A stretch of DNA of 64,000 bases, taken from positions 1,248,001 to 1,312,000 of the forward strand of contig OZ219866.1 of the NCBI GenBank assembly GCA_964291675.2, in the 5' to 3' direction. Made by a program: the position numbers and the translations under genes. The DNA comes from Alphaproteobacteria bacterium. GTDB taxonomy: Bacteria; Pseudomonadota; Alphaproteobacteria; MPNO01. Each line of letters begins with the position of its first letter. Position 1 is the stretch's first letter. Positions 18,499 through 35,628 of the stretch are shown in pieces. The notes under the pieces were generated by a model. It saw only the letters and a list, made by a program, of their open reading frames with translations, was not told the origin of the DNA and did no database searches.

Positions 18499-18777
18499 AT
18501 GATACGAGGCTTCCGAAGCAGGGCGCTCAGGCGGTTCATGGAACGCGGCGAAGGGCGGCGGATCCTGCCCGAGCACCGCGAGGCCGTGGCTGACATTCTG
18601 GCGCGGCTGAATGCGTCGAGCGGTCCGGCCGACATGGATCTGCCCGGCTTTCGGCTTCACCGGCTCAAGGGAGACCTCGCCGGGCTATGGGCCGTGACGG
18701 TGCGCGCCAACTGGCGCATCGTCTTTCGCTTCGAAGACGGCCATGCGGTCGATGTGGACTATCTCGACTATCACTGA
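18499..18777 (+). CDS. higB: HigB (RelE/ParE-superfamily) toxin
   Basis: MI..FR..L..F, LPG.RLH.LKG...G.WAV.V.ANWRI.FRF, DVDY.DYH. Confidence 0.9.
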   Translation: MIRGFRSRALRRFMERGEGRRILPEHREAVADILARLNASSGPADMDLPGFRLHRLKGDLAGLWAVTVRANWRIVFRFEDGHAVDVDYLDYH

Positions 18778-18789
18778 AGGGGGGCCTCG

Positions 18790-19098
18790 ATGCTCATGCA
18801 CAACCCGCCCCATCCCGGCGGCGTTATCCGGCGCCAGTGCCTGGAGCCCCTGGGACTGACGGTCACCGAGGCGGCGAAGGGCCTCGGGGTCTCGCGCAAC
18901 ACGCTCTCGATGCTGCTCAACGGCAGGCTCGGCATCTCGCCCGAGATGGCGATCCGGCTCTCCGAGGCATTCGGCGGCAGCCCGGAGAGCTGGCTGCAGC
19001 AGCAGATGCAGTACGATCTGTGGCACGCGCAGCAGAACCGCGAGGGCGTCCCGGTCCGCAGATTCGCCGCCGCGGAACGCATCGCTCCTACGTTCTGA
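18790..19098 (+). CDS. higA: HigA antitoxin (XRE HTH)
   Basis: [31 protein letters not shown]. Confidence 0.92.
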
Positions 19099-19185
19099 GC
19101 CCGGACAATATTTTGACGGCGGCCCGTGCGAACCGCTAGGTTCGCGGCGGGACGAGTTTCGAGGCTGCGGCAGCCGGGAGAGGTC

Positions 19186-20895
19186 ATGGCGGAAGGCGCG
19201 CGCGTGGTTCGCGCATACGGGCATCCCGGCTCGGCCCGCACCAGGGCGCGGCCCCTGACCAAGGGCCGCCAGCTCGACCCGGCGGCGGTCGAGCGCGTGC
19301 GCGCGCTGCTCGGCGACCGGCCGCGCCGGCGCGACCTGCTGATCGAGCATCTGCACCTGATCCAGGACTCGCAAGGCTGCCTCGCGCCCGACGACATGGC
19401 GGCGCTCGCCGACGAGATGAAGCTCGCGCTCACCGAAATCTACGAGACGGCGACGTTCTACGCCCATTTCGACGTGCTCGACGACGGGGAGGCGCGCCCG
19501 CCGCCGCTGACCGTCCGGGTCTGCGACTCGCTCACCTGCGAGATGATGGGCGCGGACGCGCTGATCGCGGCTCTGGAGGGGAGCGCGGGCGAGGGCGTGC
19601 GCATCGTTCGCGCGCCCTGCATCGGCGCCTGCGACCGCGCGCCGGCGGCGGAAGTCGGCCACAACCAGATGTCGAACGCGACCGCAGACCGGGTCGTCGC
19701 CGCGCTCTCGGACGGCAGGACCGAGCCGGAAATTCCCGACTATGTCGGGTTCGACGACTATGTCGCGGGCGGCGGCTATGCGGTGCTCCGCGAGTGCCGC
19801 GACGGGTCCCGGCCGGTCGAGGGGGTGATCGAGGCGCTGGAGAGCTCCAGCCTGCGCGGGCTCGGCGGCGCCGGCTTCCCGACCGGGCGCAAATGGACCT
19901 TCGTCCGCGCCGAGCCGGGCCCCCGCTATCTCGCGGTCAACGCCGACGAGGGCGAGCCCGGCACCTTCAAGGACCGCTATTTCCTCGAGACCGACCCGCA
20001 CCGCTTCCTCGAAGGCATGCTGATCGCCGACTGGGCGGTCGAGGCGGAAGAGACCTATGTCTATCTGCGCGACGAGTACCCGGTCGTCCGAGAAATCCTG
20101 ATCGAGGAGATCGCCCGGCTGGAGCGGGAAGGCCTGGCTGCGCCCGGCTCCATCGTGCTCCGGCGCGGCGCCGGCGCCTATATCTGCGGCGAGGAATCGG
20201 CGATGCTCGAAAGCATCGAGGGCAAGCGCGGCCTGCCGCGCCACAAGCCGCCCTTCCCGGCCCAGGTCGGGCTGTTCGGCCAGCCGACGCTGATCAACAA
20301 CGTCGAGACGCTGTACTGGGTGCCCGACATCCTGGCCAACGGGCCGGACTGGTTCGCCGGCAAGGGCCGCAACGGGCGCAAGGGCCTGCGCACCTTCTCG
20401 GTCTCCGGCCGGGTGAAGGAGCCCGGCGTCAAGATCGCCGAGGCCGGAATCACCGCGCGCGAGCTGATCGACGAGTATTGCGGCGGCATGGCGGACGGCC
20501 ACGTCTTCAAGGGCTATTTGCCGGGCGGCGCCTCGGGCGGCATCCTGCCGGCCCACATGGCGGACATCCCGCTCGATTTCGGCACGCTGGAAGAGCATGG
20601 CTGCCTGATCGGCTCGGCCGCGGTGATCGTGCTGTCGGACCGCGACTCGGCGGCCGATGCGGCGCTCAACCTGATGCGCTTCTTCGAGGACGAGAGCTGC
20701 GGCCAGTGCACGCCGTGCCGCGCCGGCTGCGAGAAATCGGTCGGGCTGATGCGCCGGCCGAGATGGGACGAGCCGTTGCTGCGCGAGCTCAGCCGGGCGA
20801 TGATCGACGCCTCGATCTGCGGCCTGGGCCAGGCGGCGCCCAACGGGCTGTTATCGGCGCTCAAACACTTCCCCCAGGACATACCGGACGGTTAG
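19186..20895 (+). CDS. NAD-linked formate dehydrogenase beta subunit (NuoE-NuoF-like fusion)
   Basis: ATFY.HF, VCDSL.C, LRGLGGAGFPTG.KW, NADEGEPGTFKDR, YICGEE, ESCGQCTPCR. Confidence 0.88.
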   Translation: MAEGARVVRAYGHPGSARTRARPLTKGRQLDPAAVERVRALLGDRPRRRDLLIEHLHLIQDSQGCLAPDDMAALADEMKLALTEIYETATFYAHFDVLDDGEARPPPLTVRVCDSLTCEMMGADALIAALEGSAGEGVRIVRAPCIGACDRAPAAEVGHNQMSNATADRVVAALSDGRTEPEIPDYVGFDDYVAGGGYAVLRECRDGSRPVEGVIEALESSSLRGLGGAGFPTGRKWTFVRAEPGPRYLAVNADEGEPGTFKDRYFLETDPHRFLEGMLIADWAVEAEETYVYLRDEYPVVREILIEEIARLEREGLAAPGSIVLRRGAGAYICGEESAMLESIEGKRGLPRHKPPFPAQVGLFGQPTLINNVETLYWVPDILANGPDWFAGKGRNGRKGLRTFSVSGRVKEPGVKIAEAGITARELIDEYCGGMADGHVFKGYLPGGASGGILPAHMADIPLDFGTLEEHGCLIGSAAVIVLSDRDSAADAALNLMRFFEDESCGQCTPCRAGCEKSVGLMRRPRWDEPLLRELSRAMIDASICGLGQAAPNGLLSALKHFPQDIPDG

Positions 20896-20898
20896 GCC

Positions 20899-23682
20899 AT
20901 GCCAAAAGACCAGGAAGCCGCGGTCGCCTTCACCCTCAACGGCGAGACCGTCGCCGCCCAGCCGGGCGAGACCATCTGGCAGGTCGCCGAGCGCCAGGGC
21001 GTCGAGATCCCGCATCTCTGCTATTCGCCGGAGCCGGGCTACCGCGCCGACGGCAATTGCCGCGCCTGCATGGTCGAGATCGAGGGCGAGCGGGTGCTCG
21101 CCGCCTCCTGCATCCGCACTCCGAGCGAGGGGATGGTGGTGGACACCGCGAGCGAGCGCGCGGCCTCGGCGCGGCGCATGGTGTTCGAGCTGCTGATCGC
21201 CGACCAGCCGGGGCGCGCCGACGCGCATGACGCCGATTCGAAGCTGTGGCGCTGGGCCGACCGGATCGGCATCGCCGACAGCCGCTTCGACGCCAAATCC
21301 ATGCCCGCCGCCGATCCCAGCCACCCGGCGATGGCGGTCAATCTCGATGCCTGCATCAACTGCACGCTCTGCGTCCGCGCCTGCCGCGAGGTCCAGGTCA
21401 ACGACGTGATCGGCATGGCGCATCGCGGGTCGCACGCGAAGATCGTCTTCGACTTCGACGATCCGATGGGCGAGTCCACCTGCGTCGCCTGCGGCGAATG
21501 CGTCCAGGCCTGTCCCACCGGCGCGCTGATGCCGGCGGCGATGATGCAGGCGGACCGGCCGGGCGCCGTCACCCCCGACCGCACGGTCGACAGCCTCTGC
21601 CCCTATTGCGGCGTCGGCTGCCAGCTCACCTACCACATCAAGGACGACAAGCTGGTCAAGGTCGAGGGCCGGGACGGCCCGGCCAATCACGGCAGGCTCT
21701 GCGTCAAGGGACGGTTCGGCTTCGACTACGTGCACCACAAGCAGCGCATCGTCACGCCGATGATCCGCCGCGACGGGGTCGGCAAGGACGACCTCGCGAG
21801 CCTGGACGCGGCCAACCCGCTCGCGCTGTTCCGCGAGGCGAGCTGGGAGGAGGCGCTGGACGTTGCCGCCGCCGGGCTCGCCCGCATCCGCGACGCCGAT
21901 GGCGGCAAGGCGCTCGCCGGGTTCGGCTCGGCCAAGGGCTCCAACGAGGAGGCCTATCTGTTCCAGAAGCTGGTGCGGGCGGGCTTCGGCACCAACAACG
22001 TCGATCACTGCACCAGGCTGTGCCACGCGTCCTCCGTCGCGGCGCTGATGGAGACCATCAACTCCGGCGCGGTGACCGCGCCGTTCTTCGAATGCGCCAA
22101 CTCGGACACGATCGTCGTCATCGGCGCCAACCCGGCGGTGAACCACCCGGTCGCGGCGACCTTCTTCAAGAACGCCGCCAAGGCCGGCAAGACCCTGATC
22201 GTCATGGACCCGCGCGGCCAGGCGCTCAGCCGCCACGCGACCCACATGCTCCAGTTCAAGTCGGGCACCGACGTGGCGCTGCTGAACGCGATGATGAACA
22301 CCATCGTCGCCGAGGGGCTGCACGACCCGGCCTATATCGAGCGCCACACCGAGGGGTTCGAGGCGCTGAAGGCGCATGTCGCGCCGTTCACGCCGGAGGA
22401 GATGGCGCCGATCTGCGGCATCGACGCCGAGACCATCCGCACCGTCGCGCGCAAATACGCCACCGCGCCGGCCTCGATCATCTTCTGGGGCATGGGCATC
22501 TCGCAGCACATCCACGGCACCGACAACGCGCGCTGCCTGATCTCGCTCGCCCTGATGACCGGCCAGGTCGGAAGGCCGGGCACCGGGCTGCACCCGCTGC
22601 GCGGGCAGAACAACGTGCAGGGCGCCTCGGATGTCGGGCTGATCCCGATGTTCTACCCCGACTACCGCTCGGTGGCGGGGGCCGACATCCGCGAGACCTT
22701 CGAGGCGGCCTGGAAGACCTCGCTCGACCCCGAGCGCGGGCTCACCGTGGTCGAGATCATGAACGCGGTCCACGCCGGCGAGATCCGCGGCATGTACATC
22801 ATGGGCGAGAACCCGGCGATGTCGGACCCCGATGTGGGCCATGCCCGCGAGGCGCTCGCCATGCTCGACCATCTCGTCGTGCAGGAGCTGTTCCTCACCG
22901 AGACCGCCTATTTCGCCGACGTGCTGCTGCCGGCCTCGGCGTTCCCCGAGAAGGACGGCTCCTACACCAACACCAACCGCCAGGTGCAGATCGGCCGCGC
23001 CGCGCTGCCCCTGCCGGGCGAGGCGCGCCAGGATCTGTGGATCGTCCAGGAGATCGCGCGCCGCCTCGGCCTCGACTGGTCCTATGACGGTCCGGCCGAC
23101 GTGTTCGCCGAGATGCAGCAACTCATGCCCTCGCTCAACGGCATATCCTGGGAGCGGCTGGAGCGCGAGGACTCGGTGACCTACCCCACCGCGTCGTTCG
23201 ACGTGCCGGGCGACGACGTGATCTTCGGCGACGGCTTCCCCACCGCGAGCGGGCGCGGCAAGTTCGTGCCCGCCTCGATCGCCCCGCCGGACGAGGTGCC
23301 GGATGCCGACTTCCCGATGATCCTGACCACCGGCCGCGTGCTGGAGCACTGGCACACCGGCGCGATGACCCGCCGCGCCGGCGTGCTCGACGCCATCGAG
23401 CCCGAGGCGATCGCCCATCTCGCGCCGGCCGATCTCGACCGCATGGGGCTCGCCCCCGGGGCGAAGATCCGGGTCGAGACCAGGCGCGGGGCGATCGAGC
23501 TGATCGGCCGGGTCGACCGGGACGTGCCCGCGGGCGTGGTGTTCATCCCGTTCTGCTTCGCCGAGGCGGCGGCCAATCTGCTGACCAACGACGCCCTCGA
23601 CCCGTTCGGCAAGATCCCCGAGTTCAAGTTCTGCGCCGCGAAGGTGGAGGCGGCGCCGTCGAACGAGCCCGCCGCGGCCTGA
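20899..23682 (+). CDS. fdhF: Formate dehydrogenase alpha subunit (Mo/W-bisPGD, Cys ligand)
   Basis: N-terminal 2Fe-2S and 4Fe-4S motifs, CPYCGVGC, DHCTRLCHASS, LRGQNNVQG. Confidence 0.92.
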   Translation: MPKDQEAAVAFTLNGETVAAQPGETIWQVAERQGVEIPHLCYSPEPGYRADGNCRACMVEIEGERVLAASCIRTPSEGMVVDTASERAASARRMVFELLIADQPGRADAHDADSKLWRWADRIGIADSRFDAKSMPAADPSHPAMAVNLDACINCTLCVRACREVQVNDVIGMAHRGSHAKIVFDFDDPMGESTCVACGECVQACPTGALMPAAMMQADRPGAVTPDRTVDSLCPYCGVGCQLTYHIKDDKLVKVEGRDGPANHGRLCVKGRFGFDYVHHKQRIVTPMIRRDGVGKDDLASLDAANPLALFREASWEEALDVAAAGLARIRDADGGKALAGFGSAKGSNEEAYLFQKLVRAGFGTNNVDHCTRLCHASSVAALMETINSGAVTAPFFECANSDTIVVIGANPAVNHPVAATFFKNAAKAGKTLIVMDPRGQALSRHATHMLQFKSGTDVALLNAMMNTIVAEGLHDPAYIERHTEGFEALKAHVAPFTPEEMAPICGIDAETIRTVARKYATAPASIIFWGMGISQHIHGTDNARCLISLALMTGQVGRPGTGLHPLRGQNNVQGASDVGLIPMFYPDYRSVAGADIRETFEAAWKTSLDPERGLTVVEIMNAVHAGEIRGMYIMGENPAMSDPDVGHAREALAMLDHLVVQELFLTETAYFADVLLPASAFPEKDGSYTNTNRQVQIGRAALPLPGEARQDLWIVQEIARRLGLDWSYDGPADVFAEMQQLMPSLNGISWERLEREDSVTYPTASFDVPGDDVIFGDGFPTASGRGKFVPASIAPPDEVPDADFPMILTTGRVLEHWHTGAMTRRAGVLDAIEPEAIAHLAPADLDRMGLAPGAKIRVETRRGAIELIGRVDRDVPAGVVFIPFCFAEAAANLLTNDALDPFGKIPEFKFCAAKVEAAPSNEPAAA

Positions 23683-24716
23683 TGGCGAACGCCATGTATC
23701 TGCGCGATTGCTGGTACGTCGCCGCCTGGGACCGCGAGGTGGGGCGCGAGCCCATGTCCCGGACCCTGCTCGGCGAGGCGGTGATGCTCTACCGCCGCGC
23801 GGACGGCACCCCGGTCGCGCTGGAGGACCGCTGCTGCCACCGCAACCTGCCGCTCTCGATGGGCCGCGTGCGGGGCGACGACATCCAGTGCGGCTATCAC
23901 GGTCTCACCTTCGATCCGAGCGGCGCCTGCATCTCGATTCCCGGCCAGTCGACGATCCCGCCGGGCGCCCGGGTGCGGCGCTATCCGGTCGTCGAACGGC
24001 ACCGCTGGATCTGGATCTGGATGGGCGACCCGGCCCGCGCCGACGACGCCCTGATCCCGGATCTGTCCTGGAACGACGGTGCGGCGTGGCGGACCACGGG
24101 CGACTACCACCCGGTCGCGGCCGAGTACCGGCTGCTGACCGACATCCAGCTCGACGCGACGCATGTCACCTTCGTCCATCCCGACACGCTGGGCAGCGAC
24201 GCCGTCCAGGACACCCCGCCCAGGGTCGAGCGCAAGGACGGGCGGATCGCGATCTCGCGCTGGCTGCTGGGCGTCGAGGCGCCGCCGATCTGGAAGGTCG
24301 CGGGCGGCTTCGCCGGGCCGGTCGACCGCTGGATCCTCGCCACCTTCGTGCCGCCGACGGGGTGCATCTTCGACATCGGCGCGGCCGAGGCCGGGACCGG
24401 CGCGCCGGAGGGCGACCGGAGCCGGGGCATCACCAACCGGACCTCGCATTTCTCGACCCCGGAGGGCGAGTCGTCCTGCCACTATTTCTGGCTGTTCGCG
24501 CGCAACTACCGGCTCGACGACGAGGACCTCGATTCCCGCCTGCATCCCGGCGTCCACCAGACCTTCCGGGAGGATGTCGACGCGGTGGAGGCGCAGCAGC
24601 GCGGCATCGACGCCCGCCCCGGCGCGCCGCAGATCGACGTCAACGCCGACCGCCCCACCATCCAGGTCCGCCGCCTGCTCGCCAGCCTGATCGCGGCGGA
24701 CGCGGCCGCCGCATAG
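23682..24716 (+). CDS. Rieske oxygenase, VanA/demethylase-like
   Basis: WYVAAW, CCHR..L....CGYHG Rieske motif, D.THV..VH, F.ED...EAQQ. Confidence 0.85.
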   Translation: MANAMYLRDCWYVAAWDREVGREPMSRTLLGEAVMLYRRADGTPVALEDRCCHRNLPLSMGRVRGDDIQCGYHGLTFDPSGACISIPGQSTIPPGARVRRYPVVERHRWIWIWMGDPARADDALIPDLSWNDGAAWRTTGDYHPVAAEYRLLTDIQLDATHVTFVHPDTLGSDAVQDTPPRVERKDGRIAISRWLLGVEAPPIWKVAGGFAGPVDRWILATFVPPTGCIFDIGAAEAGTGAPEGDRSRGITNRTSHFSTPEGESSCHYFWLFARNYRLDDEDLDSRLHPGVHQTFREDVDAVEAQQRGIDARPGAPQIDVNADRPTIQVRRLLASLIAADAAAA

Positions 24717-24766
24717 CTGTCCCCGGCGGCCGCGGAAAGGCGACGCCCCCGGCCCGTATTTCGATA

Positions 24767-24970
24767 CGCGGCTCCGCCGCTACTCAGGACGAGGTTGGGG
24801 CGCGGCTCCGCCGCTACCCGGGTCGAAGGTAAAGCGTGGCTACGCCGCTACCCCGTACAAATGTGAAGCGTGGCTACGCTGCTACCCGGGACAAGGGTGA
24901 AGCGTGGCTCCGCCGCCGGCCGGGGCGAGGGCGGGGCGCGGCTCCGCCGCTACCGGGGATGAGGCGTGGG
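24767..24970 (+). repeat. Tandem array of six 34-bp units (17-bp hairpin core + 17-bp semi-variable part)
   Basis: Core CG(C/T)GGCT(C/A)CGC(C/T)GCTAC at 24767, 24801, 24835, 24869, 24903 (3' end degenerate), 24937. Confidence 0.9.
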
Positions 24971-24981
24971 CGAGGGACGCC

Positions 24982-25563
24982 TCACAGCACGATCGACGGG
25001 TTCCTGAGGTTCTGGTCGTAGTCGATCAGGTTGACCTGCTTGACCAGGATGCGCCAATGCGTGGTCGCATCGCGCAGCCGGTGGCCCGCCCAGCCGGCCC
25101 AGATCCGGGTCTCGCCGGCGCGGAACTCGACGGTGAGGAAGTTGGAGCGCGTCATCACGATGCCGGGGTCGGCGGTCGAGAACAGCTCGATGTTGGAGAC
25201 CATGCGCGTGGTCCGCGAGCCCGGGCGCTGCGACCAGGCCTCGCCGGTCTTGAGGCGGAAGATGCGGTCCTCCAGCCGGCGGCGGTCGTCGAAGGCGATG
25301 GCGATCTCGCGCCTGGGATCGCCGTCGCGCGTGCCCGGCACCCAGTAGATGCATTCGGGGGCGAACAAAGCGAGCCAGTCGTCGAAGCGGTCCCGGTCGA
25401 GGAGCCGCGCCTCCTCGGCCAGGAAGCGGGCGCAGGACTCGCGCAGCGCCGCGTCCGAGATCGCGCGCTCCGGGGTCTGCCAGTCGGCGAATTCCTCGAC
25501 CAGCGCGGCGTAATAGTCGTCGCTGACGTAGTACGAGCTGGTCGACGGGTCGGGCGCGTCCAC
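24982..25563 (-). CDS. Ring-hydroxylating dioxygenase beta subunit
   Basis: FL..EARLLD..RFDDWL.LF....YWVP, R..RL.DRI.RL, K.V.LID. Confidence 0.88.
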   Translation of the reverse strand: MDAPDPSTSSYYVSDDYYAALVEEFADWQTPERAISDAALRESCARFLAEEARLLDRDRFDDWLALFAPECIYWVPGTRDGDPRREIAIAFDDRRRLEDRIFRLKTGEAWSQRPGSRTTRMVSNIELFSTADPGIVMTRSNFLTVEFRAGETRIWAGWAGHRLRDATTHWRILVKQVNLIDYDQNLRNPSIVL

Positions 25564-25572
25564 CTGGGCCCC

Positions 25573-26928
25573 TCAGACCGCCCGGGCGATCGCGATGCGG
25601 GGTTCCGCCGTCATCAGGCGCTTCCACACCTTCATGTGCTCGCGCATGAACACCTCGTCGGTCGGCGGCCCGGTGATGACGCCGTCCTCGTCCACCTGCA
25701 AGCGGCCCGGGATTCCGAGCCCGCGATGCATGTAGACCCATTCGTCCTCCTCGGCCAGGAAGCCCAGCTGGATCTGCTCGAAATTGGCGAGGTCGTCGAC
25801 CTCGCCGAAATTGGGGAAGGACTCCTGGGTGCGCATGCGCAGCGCGTTGATCGCATCGACCGTCCCTTCCAGCTCGCCGTCGTCGTCGACCACGGCGGTG
25901 CCGTACCAGGTCGTGTCGGTCTCGTCGACGGCGACCGGCGTCGAGACCTGCACGTGGTTGCCAAGGATGTGGAGGTTGGGGAAGACGTTGATGTTCACCG
26001 GCTCCGACGAGGCGAGGTCGAGCGCCCGGTCGGCCCGGTCGCCGAGGCGCTGGCGCAGCGAGGCCTCGAAATGCTCCATGCCCGGGTGCGGGCCCTCGAT
26101 CTCCCACAGCGCGCCCGGCCGGTCCTCGACATTGGGGCGCTTGTCCTTGAAGTGGTGGCCGTTGCCGAAGCAGCGGACATACATCGGCGCCGAGTCGGGG
26201 CTCGTGCGGTAGAACGCCATCCCCTTGTCGGCGTCCGCATCGAAGCGGTTCTCCATGGCGAGCAGCGAGCGATGCGAGAACACGACGTGGTAGCCGTCGG
26301 CCGAGTTGTCGTAGAGCAGCTTCCAGTTGCCCTTGAACTTGAGCCGGTTGGCCTCGCACAGCGCGACCTTGCCGCCGGGGTGGCGGTCGAGCCATTCGTC
26401 GAGCGGGCCGGCGACGCCGCCGAGATAGTCGATCAGCGAAGGCGCATCGAGGTTGAGCGTGCCGAAGACGAAGCCGCGATAGCTCTCGACCCGGGGCACC
26501 TGGGCGAGGTTGAACTTCTCGTCCGCGAAATTGTCCGCGTAGCCGTCCGGCCAGGGCACGCCGTTGAGCTTGCCCGAGTTCAGGAAGGTCCAGCCGTGAT
26601 AGCCGCACTGGAAGGACTTCGCCGAGCCGCGCGCCTCGCGGCAGACGGTCGAGCCGCGATGGGTGCAGCGATTGTAGAGCGCGCGCAGCACGCCCCGGGA
26701 ATCGCGCACCAGGATGATCGGCCGGCGCCCGAGCCTGGCGGTCACGAAATCGTCGGGTTGCGGGATCTGGCTCTCGTGGCCGAGATAGACCCAGACCGCG
26801 CCGAAGATCCTGGTCATCTCCTGGTCGAAGATCCGGGGATCGGTGTAGAGCACGCGGTGCACCCGATCCTCGAACACCAGCCGGTCGTAATCGTAGGCCG
26901 CGCCGTCGATCGATGGCCGCTCGGTCAT
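25573..26928 (-). CDS. Ring-hydroxylating dioxygenase alpha subunit, aniline-dioxygenase (TdnA1/AtdA3)-like
   Basis: CTHRG...CGYHGW, NWKL..DN..DGYHV.FSH, NALRMRTQE.FP..GEVDD.ANFE. Confidence 0.85.
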   Translation of the reverse strand: MTERPSIDGAAYDYDRLVFEDRVHRVLYTDPRIFDQEMTRIFGAVWVYLGHESQIPQPDDFVTARLGRRPIILVRDSRGVLRALYNRCTHRGSTVCREARGSAKSFQCGYHGWTFLNSGKLNGVPWPDGYADNFADEKFNLAQVPRVESYRGFVFGTLNLDAPSLIDYLGGVAGPLDEWLDRHPGGKVALCEANRLKFKGNWKLLYDNSADGYHVVFSHRSLLAMENRFDADADKGMAFYRTSPDSAPMYVRCFGNGHHFKDKRPNVEDRPGALWEIEGPHPGMEHFEASLRQRLGDRADRALDLASSEPVNINVFPNLHILGNHVQVSTPVAVDETDTTWYGTAVVDDDGELEGTVDAINALRMRTQESFPNFGEVDDLANFEQIQLGFLAEEDEWVYMHRGLGIPGRLQVDEDGVITGPPTDEVFMREHMKVWKRLMTAEPRIAIARAV

Positions 26929-26952
26929 CGCCTCTCTCCCGCCTGCGGGCGT

Positions 26953-28455
26953 TCAGAAGAAGTCAAAATACTCGTTCTGTTCCCACTCGGTCACCTGGTT
27001 GGTCTCGCGGTGGCCGCCCCGGTCGATACCGTATTGCCGGAACCGGCCGAGCTCGGCGCGCTTCAGCGCGAGGAAGTAGTCGACGAACGGATCGCCGAAC
27101 TCGCGGCGGAACAGGGCGGAGGCGTCGAGCGCCCCGAGCGCGGCGTCGAGATCGGCGGGCAGCCTCTCGCGCTCGGCCTCGTAGGGGGCGAGGTCCTCGG
27201 CGGGCGCGGCGAGGTTGCGGTCGATGCCGTCGAGCGCGGCGGCGATCTGCGAGGCGGCATAGAGATAGGGGTTGGCGGCGGGCTCGCCGGCGCGGTTCTC
27301 CAGCCGCGTGGCGGCATCGCCGGCGCCGCCGATCACCCGGATCATCGCGCCCCTCTGGTCGACCCCCCAGCCCGCCCGGTCGGGCGCGAGCGAGTTGGGG
27401 CGGAAGCGGCGATAGCCGTTGATCGTCGGCGTGACGAAGGCCGAGGCGGCGCCGGCGTGCCCGATCAGCCCGGCGAGGGCCGAAAGCCCCAGCGGCGACA
27501 GCGCGTGGTCGCCGTCCGCCGGCATGAACAGGTTCTCGCCCGTCGCTTCATCCACGAACGACTGGTGGAGGTGCCAGCCGCTCGCGAAATGGCCCTCGAA
27601 GGCGGGCCGGCAGATGAAGCTCGCCGCGTAGCCGAGGCGGCGGCAGACCTGCCGCGCCGCCGTGCGGAACAGCGCGGCATCGTCCGCCGCGCGCCCCGCA
27701 TCGTCGGCCGCGAAGGTGCATTCGACCTGTCCCGGGCCGAACTCGTTCTCCAGCGAGCGCAGCTTTAGCCCGAGCCCGGCAAACGCATCGGCCAGCGCAT
27801 CGAAGACCGGCTGCATGATGTCGAGATTGGTTTCGGAGTGGTAGGAGAAGCCGGGCTCGACGGCGCTGGTCGCCAGCGGGCGGCCGCGCCGCCCCTGATG
27901 CGCGACCTCCGCATCGCCCAGCCGGTCCCCGTCGATGCGCCGCAGATACCACTCGATCTCGATGCCGACCAGCATGCGCCAGCCGCGCCCGGCGAGCCGC
28001 GCGCGCTGGCCGGCCAGGACCCCGCGGGTCGAGAAGGTAAAGGGCTTGCCGTTGCGGAAATACGGATCGCCCAGCATCCAGCCCACCCCCGGCGCCCAGG
28101 GGAGCGTGCGGAAGGTCCCCGGATCCGGGACCAGGACCAGGTTGGGCGAGCCGGTCATCTCGTCGATGCCCATGCCGCCGCCCGGGGTGAAGGAGGCGAA
28201 GACCCGCCCGCCCGACGCATCGAGGGTCGAGGTGGCGACGTTGATGTTGTAGCCGTCGAGAAGCGCGGAGCGGAGCGCCGGCGGGGTGACCGCCTTGGCC
28301 CTGACGGCGCCGTGGCTGTCGACCCAGGCGAGCCGGATCAGCCGCAGCCCGTCGGCCTCGACGCGGCGCAGGATCTCGGCCGCGGCCTCTTCCTGCCCGT
28401 CGCCCCACAGACCGTGGCGGGCGATGAACCCCTCAGATGAAGCTCGACCCGCCAT
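26953..28455 (-). CDS. Glutamine-synthetase-like gamma-glutamyl-amine ligase (TdnQ/AtdA1-like)
   Basis: FI..HG.W, GSPN.V.VPDP.TFR.LPW, EIEWYL, ASGWHLHQS, TPTINGYRR, RLENR.GEPAANPYL, EYF.. C-terminus. Confidence 0.85.
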   Translation of the reverse strand: MAGRASSEGFIARHGLWGDGQEEAAAEILRRVEADGLRLIRLAWVDSHGAVRAKAVTPPALRSALLDGYNINVATSTLDASGGRVFASFTPGGGMGIDEMTGSPNLVLVPDPGTFRTLPWAPGVGWMLGDPYFRNGKPFTFSTRGVLAGQRARLAGRGWRMLVGIEIEWYLRRIDGDRLGDAEVAHQGRRGRPLATSAVEPGFSYHSETNLDIMQPVFDALADAFAGLGLKLRSLENEFGPGQVECTFAADDAGRAADDAALFRTAARQVCRRLGYAASFICRPAFEGHFASGWHLHQSFVDEATGENLFMPADGDHALSPLGLSALAGLIGHAGAASAFVTPTINGYRRFRPNSLAPDRAGWGVDQRGAMIRVIGGAGDAATRLENRAGEPAANPYLYAASQIAAALDGIDRNLAAPAEDLAPYEAERERLPADLDAALGALDASALFRREFGDPFVDYFLALKRAELGRFRQYGIDRGGHRETNQVTEWEQNEYFDFF

Positions 28456-29254
28456 CGACGACGAGGTTCTGACCGGTGATGTAGCCCGCCTCGTCGGAGC
28501 AGATGAACAGCATCGCCTTGGCGAGGTCGTGGATCGTCCCCTGGCGGGGCAGCGCCTGCGCCCGGGTCATGGTCTTGAACATGTGCCGGGGCACCGACGG
28601 GCGCTCGATCTCGGTCTGCATCACCCCGGGCCAGAAGGTGTTGACGGTGATCCCGTGCGGCCCGAGCTCGCGCGCCATCGAGCGCGACATGCCGACCATC
28701 GCCGACTTGGAGGTGATGTAGTGGAGGTAGTTGGGCCGCCCCTTCACATGGGTGCCCGACGAGACGTTGACGATCCGCCCCCAGCCCGCCTCCATCATCG
28801 CCGGCGCCACGGCACCGGCGCACAGCATCGAGCCGGTGATGTTGACCCGCATCGCCGCCTTCCACTCCTCGACCGGGAGCTCCCAGAACGGCGCCATGGT
28901 GATCTTCGAGAACACGGCGGCGTTGTTGATCAGGATGTCGATCCGCCCGAAGGCCTCCAGCGTCCGCGCCGCCATCGCCGCCACCGAGTCCTCGTCGCCG
29001 ACATCGGTGGCGAGCGCGAGCGCCCGGCCGTGGTCCCGCTCGATTTCGGCGGCGACGCGGCTTGCGTTCTCGCCGTCGATCTCGGCGATGACGGGGACCG
29101 CACCCTGGGCGGCGAAGTAATGCGCGTAGCCGCGCCCGATCCCCTGCCCGCCGCCGGTGACGACGACGACCCGGCCGGCGAGGCTCGCATAGCTCGCCGT
29201 CCTGTCGACGTCGATGCGGGCATAATCGATATGGCCGATCCCGGCGTCCGTCAT
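28433..29254 (-). CDS. SDR family oxidoreductase
   Basis: TGGGQGIG, NNAA, YxxSK, TGQ.L.VDGG. Confidence 0.9.
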   Translation of the reverse strand: MTDAGIGHIDYARIDVDRTASYASLAGRVVVVTGGGQGIGRGYAHYFAAQGAVPVIAEIDGENASRVAAEIERDHGRALALATDVGDEDSVAAMAARTLEAFGRIDILINNAAVFSKITMAPFWELPVEEWKAAMRVNITGSMLCAGAVAPAMMEAGWGRIVNVSSGTHVKGRPNYLHYITSKSAMVGMSRSMARELGPHGITVNTFWPGVMQTEIERPSVPRHMFKTMTRAQALPRQGTIHDLAKAMLFICSDEAGYITGQNLVVDGGSSFI

Positions 29255-29883
29255 GCGTCGTTTTCCGCGCGCCGCCGGGCGCCGATCTCGGTCAGGAATT
29301 TGTCCAGCGTCTCGTAGGGCTGCGCGCCGACCACGCCGTACCCGCCGGCGACGAAGGTGGGAACGCCGCTCACCCCGATCTTGCGCGAGCGCGCCCAGTC
29401 GGCATCGACCGCGTCCCTGAAGCGCCGCTCGTCCAGCACCGCGCGCGCCTCGTCCGCCGGCAGCCCCGCCTCCCCGACGATGCCGAGCAGCGCGTCGGGG
29501 TCGCCGATATTCCTGCCGTCCACGAAATAGGCCCGGTACAGCGCATCGTGCAGCGCCGCGCCGCCGTCGACCGTGTCGGCCCAGGCGCCGAGCTCCTGCG
29601 CGAGCCGGCTGTTATAGGTGTGGGTGCGCCGGGCGTAGTCGAGCCCTTCCCCGTCCATCAGGCCCTTCATGCGCGCATAGGACGCCTCGAGGTCGTAGTC
29701 CCGCCCGGCGAACAGCGCCTCCAGCGTCAGCCCCTCCGCCGGGGTCTCGGGGTGCAGCGGGAAGTGCACCCATTTGATCTCGATGTCGAACTTCCGCCTG
29801 AGCTTCTCGATACGCACGGTACTGAGATAGCACCAGGGTCAGACGTAGTCGGTGAACACCTCAAGCACGATCGGCTCGCTCAT
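29251..29883 (-). CDS. DsbA/FrnE-family thiol-disulfide oxidoreductase, predicted selenoprotein (Sec15, UPWC)
   Basis: GGAGG-ATG MSEPIVLEVFTDYV-TGA-PWCYLSTVRIEKL continues in frame into the 188-aa ORF (FPLHPETP, GVSGVPTF). Confidence 0.85.
29797..29837 (-). promoter_or_regulatory. Candidate bacterial SECIS hairpin
   Basis: CCUGGUGCUAUCUCAGUAC-CGUGC-GUAUCGAGAAGCUCAGG forms an extended imperfect stem right after UGA. Confidence 0.65.
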
Positions 29884-29969
29884 CGGAGGCCTCCTTCGGG
29901 TTGGGCGGGCATTGTAGCTGGGGGCGTTGACGGAAGCGATCAGGTATCCGCACGAGCCGGGCCGGCCCC

Positions 29970-30013
29970 TTGACCGATTCGACAAGGTGCTGTATCTTAA
30001 CCGAAGTGGTTGA
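29970..30013 (+). promoter_or_regulatory. Sigma70 promoter and overlapping operator of the XRE gene
   Basis: TTGACC-N17-TATCTT; TTAACC-N5-GGTTGA imperfect palindrome at 29997-30013. Confidence 0.55.
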
Positions 30014-30063
30014 TTCTATTTTCTTTGGGATATAGTGAATGAACAGAAGGAGGAGAAACAGGC

Positions 30064-30420
30064 ATGACCACGGCTATCGGCAAGGAGCTTCGCAAGCTGC
30101 GCATCGATCGCGAGGAGCGTCTTTTGGACATGGCGGCACAACTGAACAAATCGGCCGCGTTCGTCTCCGCCGTGGAGACCGGGAAGAAATCGCCTCCGGT
30201 CGAGTTCGAAGAACTCGTAATTGACCGTTACGGTTTGAAGCAGGAAGCCGCGAATGCCATGCGCCAAGCAGCGGATCAGTCCCGCGACAGTTTTGTTCTC
30301 CGGCCCTACACGGCCTCGGCACGCGATACCGCGGGCCTGCTTGCGAGAAAGATGAACAAGCTTTCAGAGGCAGAACTTGAGCAAATCCGAACAATACTGA
30401 CCGATGGTGGAAAAACATGA
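30064..30420 (+). CDS. XRE-family HTH regulator (ImmR-like)
   Basis: GKELRKLRI...L.DMA..L..S.AF.SAVE.GKK..P; strong RBS; lower GC. Confidence 0.85.
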   Translation: MTTAIGKELRKLRIDREERLLDMAAQLNKSAAFVSAVETGKKSPPVEFEELVIDRYGLKQEAANAMRQAADQSRDSFVLRPYTASARDTAGLLARKMNKLSEAELEQIRTILTDGGKT

Positions 30421-30947
30421 ACGGTACGGATTACATGGTTCCTCCCCTGTCGTGGGGAAGAATAGGCGAGATCACTGAGAAAGTGCGGTCGGTGCTGGGG
30501 TTGACCGAGGAGCCGTATTTCCCGGTCATGCACGTTACTGAGCTTGTATTGGACCAAGAATTAGACTTGGTCCGCCTTGAAATCGGCTCACGTGACGAGA
30601 TGGACGACGCGGAGGGCCTTACCTGCCCGGACGGCAAATTCATACGGCTGCGGGAGGACGTCTACGAGAAGGGCTGGGCTGGGGAGGGAAGGGCGCGGTT
30701 TACGGCGGCGCACGAGCTTGGACATTTCGTTTTGCACGCCGGGCTACCACTTGCTCGAATCGAGCGACAAGAAAAGTTGCCTCCGTTTCGGCGAGCGGAG
30801 GCCCAAGCGAATCGCTTCGCCGCCGAGATCTTGATGCCGTTGCGTTTCATCGGACGAACCGACAGCGTCCGCGCGATCATGAAGCGTCACGGTGTCTCCC
30901 GCGTCGCCGCGCAAACTCGGCTTGATGGCATGGGAGCGAATGAATGA
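30417..30947 (+). CDS. ImmA/IrrE family metallo-endopeptidase
   Basis: RARFTAAHELGHF.LH and E.QAN.FAAEILMP; ATGA overlap with XRE. Confidence 0.9.
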   Translation: MNGTDYMVPPLSWGRIGEITEKVRSVLGLTEEPYFPVMHVTELVLDQELDLVRLEIGSRDEMDDAEGLTCPDGKFIRLREDVYEKGWAGEGRARFTAAHELGHFVLHAGLPLARIERQEKLPPFRRAEAQANRFAAEILMPLRFIGRTDSVRAIMKRHGVSRVAAQTRLDGMGANE

Positions 30948-30984
30948 AGGACCCGAGCGTCCACTCGGGTCCTTCTGTCTTTTC
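30946..30984 (+). terminator. Perfect 12-bp hairpin with T-rich tail
   Basis: GAAGGACCCGAG-CGTCCA-CTCGGGTCCTTC-TGTCTTTT. Confidence 0.65.
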
Positions 30985-31116
30985 TGCGTTGGGCACTAGG
31001 GGCTTGCCGATGCAGAGCCTTGCTAACGATCCAACCACAGCTTGCGACAACTGGTTGTGGCCAACATACGGGTTGAATGTCAAGGAAAACCGCGCCCCAG
31101 AGAAGGGCCTTTCAAT

Positions 31117-31248
31117 ATGAACAGGCAAAGTAAGCGAGACCGGTATCGGCTCATATTCCGCGCATGGCGTAGGTGTCCGAAAACCGGCAAGAAGCTCTAC
31201 GCTAAAACGTACGGTTTCAAAGCATGGCCCATTTGGGTTCGCGTCTAG
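31117..31248 (+). CDS. Small basic/aromatic protein (43 aa)
   Basis: MNRQSKRDRYRLIFRAWRRCPKTGKKLYAKTYGFKAWPIWVRV; AGAAGGG upstream, hairpin downstream. Confidence 0.6.
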   Translation: MNRQSKRDRYRLIFRAWRRCPKTGKKLYAKTYGFKAWPIWVRV

Positions 31249-31253
31249 GGTGG

Positions 31254-31281
31254 GGAGGGGCAGCGCAAGCGTTGCCCCTCC
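31254..31281 (+). terminator. Hairpin after the small ORF
   Basis: GGAGGGGCAGCG-CAAG-CGTTGCCCCTCC. Confidence 0.55.
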
Positions 31282-31476
31282 TTGTCATGGGATCAGAGCC
31301 GTCATGGCCGGGTCGTTGTGTTTGCTCCATCTACTGTGGAGACAAGGGTACCGGCAACTCCGCTATACGTCACCAAGTGTCGCGTGAGGCCGGCATCGTA
31401 AAGCTGCAAGTTCGCCCGTTGGCGGCCCGGGCCACGCGGGTACAATCGGCCAGCCCACGCCGCACCGGGAGGAGCC

Positions 31477-32580
31477 ATGTCCGGGACCGACTACGACGCC
31501 CCATACCGCGTCCGCGAATCGCTGGTCGCGGCGCAACGCTTGGCCTGGCGCCGCATCGCCGAGCCGGGCGCCTGGCTCGACGGGGAGCGGCGCGTGGCGG
31601 TGGCGGGCGAGGTTCGCGCGGCTGGCGACTGCCCGCTCTGCCGCGCGCGCAAGCAGGCGCTCGCGCCCTTCGCGGTCGCCGGCGAGCACGAGGCGAGCGG
31701 GCCTCTGAGCGCGGCGGAGGTCGAGCTGATCCACCGCCTGACCACCGACCCGGGCCGGCTCCGCCGGTCCTGGGCCGAGGAAATACTCGCCGCCGGGGTG
31801 AGCGAGGAGGTCTATGTCGAGATCGTAAGCGTCGTCTGCATGGTCATGATCGTCGACACCTTCCGCCGCGCGCTCGGCCTGGCGCGGCTCGACCTGCCCG
31901 CGCCGGCGGCGGGGACGCAATCGGGCTACCGCGCCCCGGGCGCCCGGCGCCACGACGCGTGGATCAGCCTGGTGCAGCCGGACGACGTGGTGGAGAGCGA
32001 CGGCGACCTCTACGGCGCCGCCGCCTCGCCGGTGGTCAAGGCGCTGTCGCTGGTGCCGGAAGCCAAGCGGGCCTATTGGGACCTCGCCGAGGAGCACTAT
32101 TTGCCGGGCAGCGAGATGACCGACTTCGCGACCGGGGTCCGTGCCATCGACCGCATGCAGATGGAGCTGGTCGCGGGCCGGGTGTCGGCGCTCCATCAAT
32201 GCGTCTACTGAACCAGCGCCCATGCGTTCATGCTCCGTGCGAGCACAGAGGTTTCGGGCGCCGATTTCGACCTGGGGGCCGTCACCGGCGAAGCGACGGA
32301 TGACGGCGGCATCGCCGGCGGGGTGCTGCTGCACGGCTTCGCCGAGGCGGTCACGCTCGGCGACGCGGCGCGGACGGCCGAGCTGAGGGACGCGCTGGTC
32401 GACCGGCTGGGCGAGGCGGCGATGATCGACGCGGCGGCGACCGCGGCGGCGTTCCACGGCTTCGTCCGGGTGGTCGACGCCACCGGCGCCCCGGTGGCGG
32501 GAGCGGCGGGCGGACGGGTGACCCCCGAATTCCGCCAGGCGCTCGGCATCGACGAGTTCTACGGCGCGCGCAACCCCTGA
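31477..32580 (+). CDS. AhpD-like alkylhydroperoxidase-related protein, predicted selenoprotein (CVYU, 367 aa by UGA readthrough)
   Basis: ORF 31477-32211 ends QMELVAGRVSALHQCVY-TGA; frame continues TSAHAF into ORF 32230-32580, giving AhpD-type CxxUxxxH. Confidence 0.8.
32231..32245 (+). promoter_or_regulatory. Candidate SECIS apical hairpin
   Basis: UGCUC-CGUGC-GAGCA, loop 24 nt after UGA; same loop as the DsbA hairpin. Confidence 0.6.
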
Positions 32581-32586
32581 CGCGGT

Positions 32587-33456
32587 TCAGAAGAGCGACG
32601 GCGCCTCCGGGTCGTGGCGCGCGTGGCGCGCCCTGGCGGCGCGGGGGCTGGCCACCGCGTAGCAGTAGATGCAGCCATGCGGGCAGCTGTCATAGGCGCC
32701 GATGTCGCGCGCCTCGTGGCAGGCGCAGCCCGGCCGGTTGCCCTTCTCCCTGGCCGCGATCGGCCGGCCCGCCACGTCGCCGAGCCGCCCCGCGTCGATG
32801 CAGCGCGCCTCCCTCGCGCCGCCGGCGGCGAGGTCGGGCTGGGCGCAGATCGTGGCCTGCATCCCGAACGCCCTTGCAGTGGCGGCGAGCTCGGCGACCG
32901 TCGCCCGCTTGCGCTCGACCGCGGGGTCCTCCCAGGTCAGCCCCGACGCCCGCCCGGCGGCGGCGAGGTTGCGGCGCGTCTTGCGATAAAGGCTCGCGAA
33001 CGACAGCACCGCCTCGTCGACCGCCCCGGCGAGCGCCTCGGCGAGGCGGGCGAAGCGTTCGACATGGGAGCAGAGCGGCGTGGCGCCGGTCACGATGATC
33101 GGGTCGCAGCGCCAGACCGCGGCGCGCGGGCCGAAATCCCGGGCGATCGCATGCACCTGTTCGGCGGCCCGCGCGGCGTCGATCACCGAGGTTTCGAGCA
33201 GCCGCGGATAGCCGGTGATCGTGTAGTGGACGACGAAGGGGATGCCGTCCGATGCCAGGCGTTCGAGCACCGGGAGGAACGGCGCCGCGTTGCGCGTCCA
33301 GAACACGAAGCCGGAGACCGACTCCCGGTCGAGGCGGACGGTGTAGGGCTTGCCGTAGGGGTTTCGCACCGTGCAAAACCCGGCCGCCAGGCGTCGTTCG
33401 AACCACGCGCCGTAAAAGGCCGGGATATCGGTGCGGTAGCTCGCGGATACGATCAT
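32587..33456 (-). CDS. DUF1848 family protein
   Basis: MIVSASYRTDIPAFY, FVFWTRN, C.C....DIGAYDSCPHGC.YCYA. Confidence 0.85.
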   Translation of the reverse strand: MIVSASYRTDIPAFYGAWFERRLAAGFCTVRNPYGKPYTVRLDRESVSGFVFWTRNAAPFLPVLERLASDGIPFVVHYTITGYPRLLETSVIDAARAAEQVHAIARDFGPRAAVWRCDPIIVTGATPLCSHVERFARLAEALAGAVDEAVLSFASLYRKTRRNLAAAGRASGLTWEDPAVERKRATVAELAATARAFGMQATICAQPDLAAGGAREARCIDAGRLGDVAGRPIAAREKGNRPGCACHEARDIGAYDSCPHGCIYCYAVASPRAARARHARHDPEAPSLF

Positions 33457-33486
33457 CGGCCATACCCCTGCGGGACGCGGCGAGCG

Positions 33487-33517
33487 GTTGTACCGCCGGT
33501 TCCCCGACCCTATATAT
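33487..33517 (+). promoter_or_regulatory. RpoH (sigma32)-type promoter of dnaK
   Basis: GTTG-N18-CCTATAT resembles the alphaproteobacterial RpoH consensus CTTG-N17/18-CCTATAT. Confidence 0.55.
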
Positions 33518-33612
33518 CCGCAATCGCAGTTGCGTTTCGGGCGTGAGACTTTCGGGGATGCCGCGGGCGCCGTCACGGGCCCTTGGCGTCCGCTGCAATA
33601 ACGGGGATTGAA

Positions 33613-35529
<1,917 letters not shown>

Positions 35530-35628
35530 GCCCGCCTGCGCGCCAGCACGGTGGCTCCGCGTTGAGTTGCCCACTGCGCCCTCGGCCGGGATGCCGCTCC
35601 CGGCGGTCGCGGCAACGGGTCTGACCGC

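Follow-up and report, generated by a model that had tools for sequence, protein, structure and literature searches.

The glutamylation-dependent arylamine dioxygenases described to date come almost only from plasmid-borne gene clusters that degrade pollutants. They include the aniline and chloroaniline systems TdnQTA1A2B, AtdA1-A5, DcaQTA1A2B of plasmid pTB30 and AdoQTA1A2B of Sphingobium YBL2, and the 1-naphthylamine system NpaA1-A5 of Pseudomonas sp. JS3066, for which the structures 8WWU, 8WWV and 8X6Z are available; 8WWU is NpaA1, the 1-naphthylamine gamma-glutamyl ligase (PMC11335346). Here we analyse a related operon in a 64-kb stretch of DNA (hereafter the window; G+C content ~70%) from an Alphaproteobacteria bacterium (GTDB MPNO01; GCA_964291675.2, contig OZ219866.1, positions 1,248,001-1,312,000). 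Five tightly packed minus-strand genes with high third-position GC encode, from 5′ to 3′, a DsbA-like protein, a short-chain dehydrogenase/reductase (SDR), a glutamine synthetase (GS)-like protein and the alpha and beta subunits of a Rieske oxygenase (Table 1), the first two junctions overlapping by 4 nt (ATGA) and 23 nt, and the next two leaving 24 and 9 nt between the genes. We propose that the last three products would form a minimal module that deaminates a polar or anionic arylamine by first glutamylating and then dioxygenating it, a reading to which we give a probability of about 0.62.

The original prediction, made from the letters of the DNA, had described an aniline-dioxygenase-like operon in which a GS-like gene is directly followed by Rieske alpha and beta genes and coupled to an SDR gene upstream. 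This is a real operon and it was correctly recognised: the four genes lie on the minus strand exactly where they had been placed, and the SDR and GS-like reading frames share 23 nt. The sequence strings quoted there as typical of such proteins are all present in the translations, namely FIARHGLW, GSPNLVLVPDPGTFRTLPW and ASGWHLHQS in the GS-like protein and RMRTQESFPNFGEVDDLANFE in the alpha subunit. The gene list itself stood for the four genes that were named and was incomplete at the 5′ side, where the DsbA-like gene, likely the first of the operon, had been overlooked.

Is the GS-like protein a glutamine synthetase? Its best match in the PDB is NpaA1 (8wwu_A; 437 bits, E 8.5e-130, residues 6-499), whereas no other GS chain exceeds 150 bits, with glutamate-methylamine ligase at 137 and PA5508 (4hpp) at 69. 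When compared with reference genes of annotated plasmids and E. coli K-12, it is 47% identical to a Nostoc protein, 46% to the DcaQ-type protein of pTB30 and the AdoQ-type protein of YBL2, 44-46% to SadB-like proteins and 43% to NpaA1, against 29% for E. coli PuuA and 28% for GlnA; the NCBIfam model of gamma-glutamylputrescine synthetase gives 209 bits, with a cut-off of 650. All 11 metal, ATP and glutamate ligands that were checked (E166, E168, E238, E245, H295, H297, R350, R368, R373, E386 and R388) are identical to those of E. coli GlnA and NpaA1 in the alignment. These positions follow the StGS numbering, and the residue letters were verified in the alignment. At the ammonium site, Ala87 stands in place of Asp50′ and Leu356 in place of the Glu327 flap, and both are likewise lost in DcaQ and in NpaA1, which carries Asn and Leu. 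Loss of ammonium-site residues of this type is given, in the paper's own numbering, as typical of glutamyl-organic-amine ligases (GoaS) in the NpaA1 report (PMC11335346). From the ligands kept and the ammonium-site residues lost, we predict an organic-amine glutamyl ligase of GoaS type and not a glutamine synthetase.

The alpha subunit carries both a Rieske motif (C88-x-H90...C108-x2-H111) and a 2-His-1-carboxylate iron motif (D211-x2-H214-x4-H219). It is 53% identical to its Nostoc counterpart, 51% to that of R. gordoniae, 43-44% to DcaA1, AdoA1 and NpaA3, and 36% to XylX. Its best plasmid matches all adjoin GS-like genes, after which the identity falls to 38% or less. Scores for the NCBIfam models of BenA (TIGR03229, 228 bits against a cut-off of 781) and AntA (TIGR03228, 187 against 672) lie far below the cut-offs, as does that for HcaE. 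The beta subunit shows a comparable pattern (46% to R. gordoniae, 41-44% to AdoA2 and DcaA2, and 36% over 113 residues to XylY). Thus the alpha subunit sides with the GS-linked oxygenases rather than with the dioxygenases of benzoate or anthranilate.

Phylogenetic analysis led to the same grouping. In a careful IQ-TREE tree of 29 GS rows (17 of 61 full-length family sequences, the window protein, 9 references and 2 outgroups), an arylamine-ligase superclade that includes the window protein was separated from PuuA and GlnA with 97/98 support. Within it, a clade of 10 rows with 100/100 support holds DcaQ, AdoQ, NpaA1, SadB-like, Rhodococcus, Shinella and Nostoc proteins and two actinobacterial proteins from metagenome-assembled genomes (MAGs); the window protein pairs instead, among MAG sequences, with that of its closest related locus, L001 (100/99). 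A quick tree of the alpha subunits, calculated with 27 of the 29 rows, gave the clade of the window alpha (17 rows) a Shimodaira-Hasegawa-like approximate likelihood ratio (SH-aLRT) of 100 and left XylX, HcaE and two alphas that are not GS-linked outside the GS-linked ones. The two rows dropped were SadA-like alphas, whose position inside the window alpha clade was rejected as a long-branch artefact (branch length 10, unrelated alpha type, 25% identity). Because the GS-like protein does not group with PuuA or GlnA, nor the alpha subunit with benzoate or anthranilate dioxygenases, the homology originally claimed with TdnQ- and AtdA1-type systems is favoured.

The association of these genes is conserved. 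A protein search returned 3221 matches at E ≤1e-20 among 8000 scored candidates; the best 120 of them are 60-100% identical to the GS-like protein, those with a name being MAG proteins of Rhodospirillales, Alphaproteobacteria, Rhodospirillaceae or Xanthobacteraceae. A scan of species-representative genomes gave at least 600 pattern matches, of which at least 590 encode a relative, the known clade included. In the best 80 of these related stretches (hereafter the 80 loci), 72 of which extend at least 3.6 kb beyond the GS start, an alpha gene comes after the GS-like gene in 70 loci and both subunit genes do so in 67, with median identities to the window of 60%, 69% and 59% for GS, alpha and beta respectively. 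Six loci have room for an adjacent alpha gene and do not carry one (L039, L044, L058 and three actinobacterial loci). Since the GS-alpha arrangement recurs in 70/80 loci, it is not a chance one.

What the operon does not contain is equally characteristic. Pfam scans of 73 open reading frames (ORFs) revealed no class-I amidotransferase, ferredoxin or oxygenase reductase in the window, and tblastn with 16 reference proteins, of which 7 are amidotransferases or of PuuD type and 9 represent four kinds of reductase and ferredoxin, found no match to any of them in these 64 kb. The same queries produced a single weak match in the 80 loci, a reductase-like stretch 31% identical in L076, and the 7 amidotransferase or PuuD-type queries found no homologue in these loci either. 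The sole LysR gene of the window lies ~17 kb away (45924-46835), and a divergent LysR gene occurs at 6 of the 80 loci. The original prediction was therefore right that TdnT, TdnB and an adjacent LysR are missing. Its view that this makes an unusual gene set did not hold: the helper genes are absent across the window and the 80 loci as well as from a bare locus of Nostoc, so that their absence is a property of the whole branch and the norm for a large clade. Indeed, the amidotransferase is dispensable in a known system too, since NpaA1A3A4A5 still converts the substrate without NpaA2 (PMC11335346), and cyanobacterial and Bacillota systems have no electron-transfer chain nearby, according to a recent preprint (bioRxiv 10.1101/2024.12.29.630347). 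Considered by analogy with these two cases, the lack of helper genes appears mechanistically acceptable. The branch is widespread, on MAG contigs and chromosomes, mostly of Alpha- and Betaproteobacteria, with no transposase genes seen nearby, and no function was assigned to it in the literature that we searched.

Which amine would be the substrate? In NpaA1, a loop of the neighbouring subunit (V68′-M81′) forms the hydrophobic amine pocket, and M81, a tunnel residue, tunes the specificity together with W235 and V201 (PMC11335346). In the window protein these three residues correspond to R84, F239 and Y205. The N-terminal "motif 15" loop, which in GoaS enzymes forms a large hydrophobic amine pocket, is there, but it is polar, NINVATSTLDASGGR, with the NpaA1 residues A69, I70, G71, P72 and F75 swapped for polar ones; the aniline enzymes have a hydrophobic, F-rich loop at this place. 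The polar loop is near-invariant in the family (GYNINVATxTLD...RxFxSF), where G68, L78, R84, F86, S88 and F89 are found in 60/60 rows and N70 in 57/60, while R84 occurs in 0/9 rows of the reference clade. Two SadB-like proteins carry an Arg one alignment column away, and characterised SadB relatives act on an anionic sulfonate (PMC5632844). A near-invariant polar loop with Arg at the M81 position points to one conserved, natural, polar and probably anionic aromatic amine rather than aniline; aminobenzoate is our leading guess, held with low confidence. The suggestion that the pathway serves a different amine from the aniline systems is hence plausible, given this loop and the position of the protein outside the 100/100 clade of characterised enzymes.

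It could be argued that the operon encodes a conventional dioxygenase of aniline or chloroaniline, and that the genes for its amidotransferase, reductase and regulator are located in another part of the genome. Both have the same two specificity components (GS 43-47% and alpha 43-44% identical to the Dca, Ado and Npa proteins), an amidotransferase is dispensable in the Npa system (PMC11335346), and the amine-contacting residues E236 and E238, as well as Y205, match those of the aniline-type enzymes. Against this, the window protein falls outside the clade of all reference enzymes, the F-rich loop is replaced by a polar one with an invariant Arg, and the helper genes are absent throughout the clade and not only here. 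Moreover, Pfam scans of the window ORFs found no transposase or insertion sequence (IS) genes flanking the operon, unlike in the IS-flanked plasmid clusters, and the near-invariance of the loop across Rhodospirillales, Xanthobacteraceae and Betaproteobacteria is more in keeping with a natural substrate than with a pollutant. We consider this alternative improbable.

Genes around the 80 loci offer further hints. TctC is encoded in 14 of them, a PcaB-like cycloisomerase gene that passes TIGR02426 (363 bits against 356) lies downstream in 6, a UbiD-like decarboxylase gene upstream in 2, and an AMP-ligase gene is present in 10; these neighbours hint at an aromatic acid. TctA is encoded in 7/80, and class II aldolase genes occur in 6/80, amidases in 9 + 5 of 80 and aldehyde dehydrogenases in 10/80. 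In 9-10 loci an amidase and an aldehyde dehydrogenase lie directly upstream, an arrangement that resembles Puu-type pathways and that, along with the polar loop, would suit a non-aromatic amine. Glutamylation is known to provide a handle on the amine in the IpuC/IpuD route for isopropylamine, and by analogy the amine could be glutamylated and then hydroxylated, or else the ligase could act in a polyamine-type detoxification independently of the oxygenase. This is highly doubtful, since the protein is only 29% identical to PuuA and far below the gamma-glutamylputrescine synthetase cut-off, the oxygenase is of the ring-hydroxylating alpha/beta type with nearest relatives that all pair with arylamine ligases, and the very tight linkage between the two speaks against independent functions. 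A biosynthetic role, for example in making an N-oxygenated or glutamyl-carried natural-product intermediate, seems barely credible. GS-like ligases and Rieske N-oxygenases do exist in some biosynthetic clusters, but neither the window nor the 80 neighbourhoods contained biosynthetic core genes, the genes nearby being those of transporters, amidases and dehydrogenases and housekeeping genes.

Several observations weigh against a deamination module for a polar arylamine. The position of the GS-like protein outside the reference clade implies that its function may have diverged further than assumed, and the monophyly of the window's group was not resolved by the GS tree, which had only two outgroups, both distant (PuuA and GlnA); GlnA3, GmaS and PA5508 entered the comparison through PDB scores only. 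In the quick alpha tree, the support for grouping all GS-linked alphas was only 89. The substrate reading draws on one loop and on neighbourhoods that are heterogeneous, as these fall into at least four unrelated types: an amidase followed by an aldehyde dehydrogenase upstream; TcuA-like, CoxG, Tct and PcaB-like genes; an AMP-ligase with a class II aldolase; and LysR, MBL, MarR, TctC and IlvD genes. Therefore no substrate can be read from the context alone, and the existence of four types might reflect either a diversity of substrates or a function of a general kind. Finally, no electron-transfer partner was found within the window or near 79 of the 80 loci, so that activity would depend on unlinked genes.

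On balance we favour the minimal deamination module, which would work as follows. The GS-like enzyme would use ATP to join the gamma-carboxyl of L-glutamate to the amine, and an alpha3beta3-type Rieske oxygenase, supplied with electrons by a reductase or ferredoxin encoded elsewhere in the genome, would dihydroxylate the gamma-glutamylated ring at the nitrogen-bearing carbon. The unstable diol would then rearomatise, expelling the nitrogen substituent and leaving a catechol-type product. These core steps would be akin to the first steps of bacterial aniline and naphthylamine oxidation. A more specific version, tentative and on the whole unlikely, is that Alpha- and Betaproteobacteria of soils and the sea might widely use the triad both to catabolise a natural product and to scavenge nitrogen, converting one conserved anionic arylamine (e.g. 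4-aminobenzoate or a related aminobenzoate) to a catechol or carboxycatechol, with the nitrogen leaving as glutamine and, in this lineage, a DsbA-like selenoprotein coupled to it. If true, a glutamylation-dioxygenation route to such aminobenzoate-like compounds would be previously undescribed. The stripped-down form of the window, around which no mobile-element genes were seen, is shared by many uncultured Alpha- and Betaproteobacteria, and its near-invariant polar pocket points to a natural substrate and to a physiological role in obtaining carbon or nitrogen from a biogenic arylamine. Knowledge of the substrate would improve the incomplete picture of how common environmental bacteria deal with aromatic amines and would add a new specificity class to a ligase family of interest for bioremediation.

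It was originally suggested that the SDR may act as a dihydrodiol dehydrogenase. If so, there would in this lineage be no deamination at the dioxygenase step, and a stable cis-dihydrodiol of the glutamylated compound would be rearomatised by the co-transcribed SDR. The translational coupling (23-nt and 4-nt overlaps) is in favour of this scheme, and so are the fold and the 33% identity that the SDR shares with cis-diol dehydrogenases of XylL type. In addition, homologues of the SDR (79-88% identical), DsbA-like and GS-like proteins are found on contigs of equal size (8800; 1904718; 3868867), weak evidence that the DsbA-SDR pair may recur in close relatives, as equality of size is all that connects them. 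However, an SDR gene lies upstream of the GS-like gene in none of the 80 loci, the identity to HcaB is 27%, and the best 25 NCBIfam matches include no model of a diol dehydrogenase, the only subfamily passed being the generic PRK07231 (222.8 bits against a cut-off of 215). Also, the diol formed by aniline dioxygenase, as Takeo and co-workers reportedly found in 2013, sheds its nitrogen substituent and thereby becomes aromatic again without the help of a dehydrogenase. The dehydrogenase role is thus not supported, and a scheme built on it stands little chance of being right; the SDR is a lineage-specific accessory gene. A further protein, P0349, is 68% identical to the operon SDR and may be a paralogue in the same genome.

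The DsbA-like reading frame is interrupted at codon 15 by an in-frame TGA (29839-29841) in the place of the first Cys of a CPWC motif (FTDYV-TGA-PWCY, which would read U15-P-W-C18). Read-through of this codon raises the PF01323 score from 82.6 to 115.4 bits, covering profile positions 2-190 of 191, and a strong ribosome-binding site (GAAGGAGG) precedes the ATG at 29883. L001, the only one of the 80 loci with a DsbA-like gene upstream (7023-7660, plus strand), has the same TGA, and its bases are identical up to and ~30 nt past it. Among the 120 homologues listed, 48 carry CPWC, 2 have R and 2 have W at the position, and 68 are short gene calls starting just past it; P0149 and P0243 are full-length homologues with R or W there, and W may stem from a gene call that reads TGA as Trp. 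As all five operon genes stop at TGA, the genome does not generally read this codon as sense. Because of the in-frame TGA at the first Cys of the motif, the gene probably encodes a UxxC selenoprotein (UPWC). Selenoproteins of this DsbA-like UxxC type (COG2761) have been on record since the study of the Sargasso Sea (PMC1088965). An Rfam search of 24500-30300 (E up to 1) gave five chance-level matches only, with no selenocysteine insertion sequence (SECIS), riboswitch or leader; a hairpin with the apical loop CGUGC is predicted ~21 nt past the UGA in both the window and L001, with z-scores (-0.62 and -0.94) no better than those of shuffled sequences. One tRNA gene, for tRNA-Arg, is present in the window. 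The protein is probably routinely miscalled as a 188-aa protein. Like the SDR gene, the DsbA-like gene is a lineage-specific addition.

Table 1. Features of the operon and of the neighbouring genes in the window.
Feature	Coordinates	Strand	Remarks
DsbA/FrnE-like thiol-disulfide oxidoreductase	29251..29883	-	210 codons, one TGA read through; PF01323 (DSBA)
SDR	28433..29254	-	273 aa; PF13561, E 2.2e-62; Pfam label adh_short
GS-like glutamyl-organic-amine ligase (GoaS type, predicted)	26953..28455	-	500 aa; PF00120 (Gln-synt_C), E 8e-71
Rieske non-haem-iron oxygenase, large (alpha) subunit	25573..26928	-	451 aa; PF00355 (Rieske) and PF00848 (Ring_hydroxyl_A)
Oxygenase, small (beta) subunit	24982..25563	-	193 aa; PF00866 (Ring_hydroxyl_B), E 8.4e-35
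Presumed promoter region	29884..30063	-	180-nt intergenic, between the operon and the divergent 118-aa ORF/ImmA-like pair
HigB-like toxin (PF05015), then XRE-type helix-turn-helix protein	18499-19098	+	Type II toxin-antitoxin pair
Fused NuoE/NuoF-like protein	19126-20895	+	Convergent to operon
Formate dehydrogenase alpha subunit	20899-23682	+	TIGR01591, 727 bits against a cut-off of 666
VanA-like Rieske oxygenase	23682-24716	+	Translationally coupled, start overlaps the formate dehydrogenase stop (ATGA at 23682)
Unassigned 118-aa ORF and ImmA/IrrE-like M78 peptidase	30064-30947 (peptidase 30417-30947)		Divergent from operon

A consensus scan of 24600-30200 gave no promoter on the operon strand, one promoter-like site on the plus strand and terminator-like sites at chance level, and so the promoter role of the region upstream of the DsbA-like gene is inferred from its position only. 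Directly upstream of the operon, the G+C content drops to 0.62-0.65 over 30000-32600, compared with ~0.70; this stretch, which includes the 118-aa ORF and the peptidase gene and in which the ORFs at 31224-32580 have no family match, may be a mobile-element remnant. Beyond it lie dnaK (33583-35529; HSP70, 920 bits) and dnaJ. A 1367-aa ORF on the minus strand (32587-36690) matches PF10712, "NAD-specific glutamate dehydrogenase", with 658 bits in a part that is antisense to dnaK; the match looks like one to a shadow-ORF family, and only the 3′ part (~32655-33450, DUF1848) looks like a real gene. On the other side of the operon, an NAD-dependent formate dehydrogenase coupled to a demethylase-type, VanA-like oxygenase is an unusual combination, and VanA- or LigXa-like oxygenases lie near the GS gene in L001, L008, L011 and L043 too. 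We rejected the NuoE/F-like genes associated with this dehydrogenase as the missing electron donor, as they are convergently transcribed and nothing ties them to the operon, and likewise the helix-turn-helix protein as a regulator of the dehydrogenase genes, as it belongs to the toxin-antitoxin pair.

How does the operon compare with the described systems? It shares with the aniline and chloroaniline systems the order GS, alpha, beta, the identities to the DcaQ and AdoQ systems (GS 46%, alpha 44%, beta 41-44%), the ligand set and the loss of the ammonium-site residues. It differs from them in having no amidotransferase gene between GS and alpha, no reductase gene, no LysR gene and no IS or plasmid context, in standing outside their 100/100 clade and in its polar, Arg-containing loop, which is hydrophobic in theirs. 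The NpaA system provides the best match of solved structure and is 43% identical in both GS and alpha, but it has the reductase NpaA5 and the amidotransferase NpaA2, which the window lacks.

The SadABC(D) system of Hydrogenophaga, a 4-aminobenzenesulfonate 3,4-dioxygenase, resembles the proposed module in that its substrate is an anionic arylamine (PMC5632844). SadAB-like loci of Novosphingobium resinovorum SA1 (pSA3) and Methylobacterium nodulans (pMNOD01) encode GS-like proteins 44-46% identical to that of the window, with no adjacent amidotransferase gene. Strain SA1 presumably degrades sulfanilate. Their oxygenase is of an alpha-only type without beta (~25% identity over ~200 residues), and ferredoxin and reductase genes lie nearby, which is not the case in the window. 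In the SadAB-like loci L083 (5615-8437) and L087 (6634-9458), the GS-like ligase gene stands beside a Rieske alpha gene unrelated to the alpha/beta type, which implies that the ligase has been recruited by two oxygenase lineages.

Among actinobacteria, a six-component aniline dioxygenase, sktABCDEF, has been reported from Rhodococcus ruber R1 (bioRxiv 10.1101/2024.12.29.630347), and a similar locus is present on pDND3A of R. gordoniae. In the Rhodococcus locus there are, besides catA, genes for a ferredoxin and a reductase and two genes that resemble those of amidotransferases, whereas Nostoc UHCC 0926 carries just the beta-alpha-GS triad, and no homologue of an amidotransferase or electron-transfer protein was found within 15 kb of it. 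The gene order differs from that of the window, and both GS proteins belong to the reference clade that excludes the window protein. The alphas of R. gordoniae and Nostoc UHCC 0926 (51% and 53%) are the nearest annotated ones to the window alpha. The window system is not categorically new; it is a minimal variant of these systems, from a widespread and uncharacterised branch.

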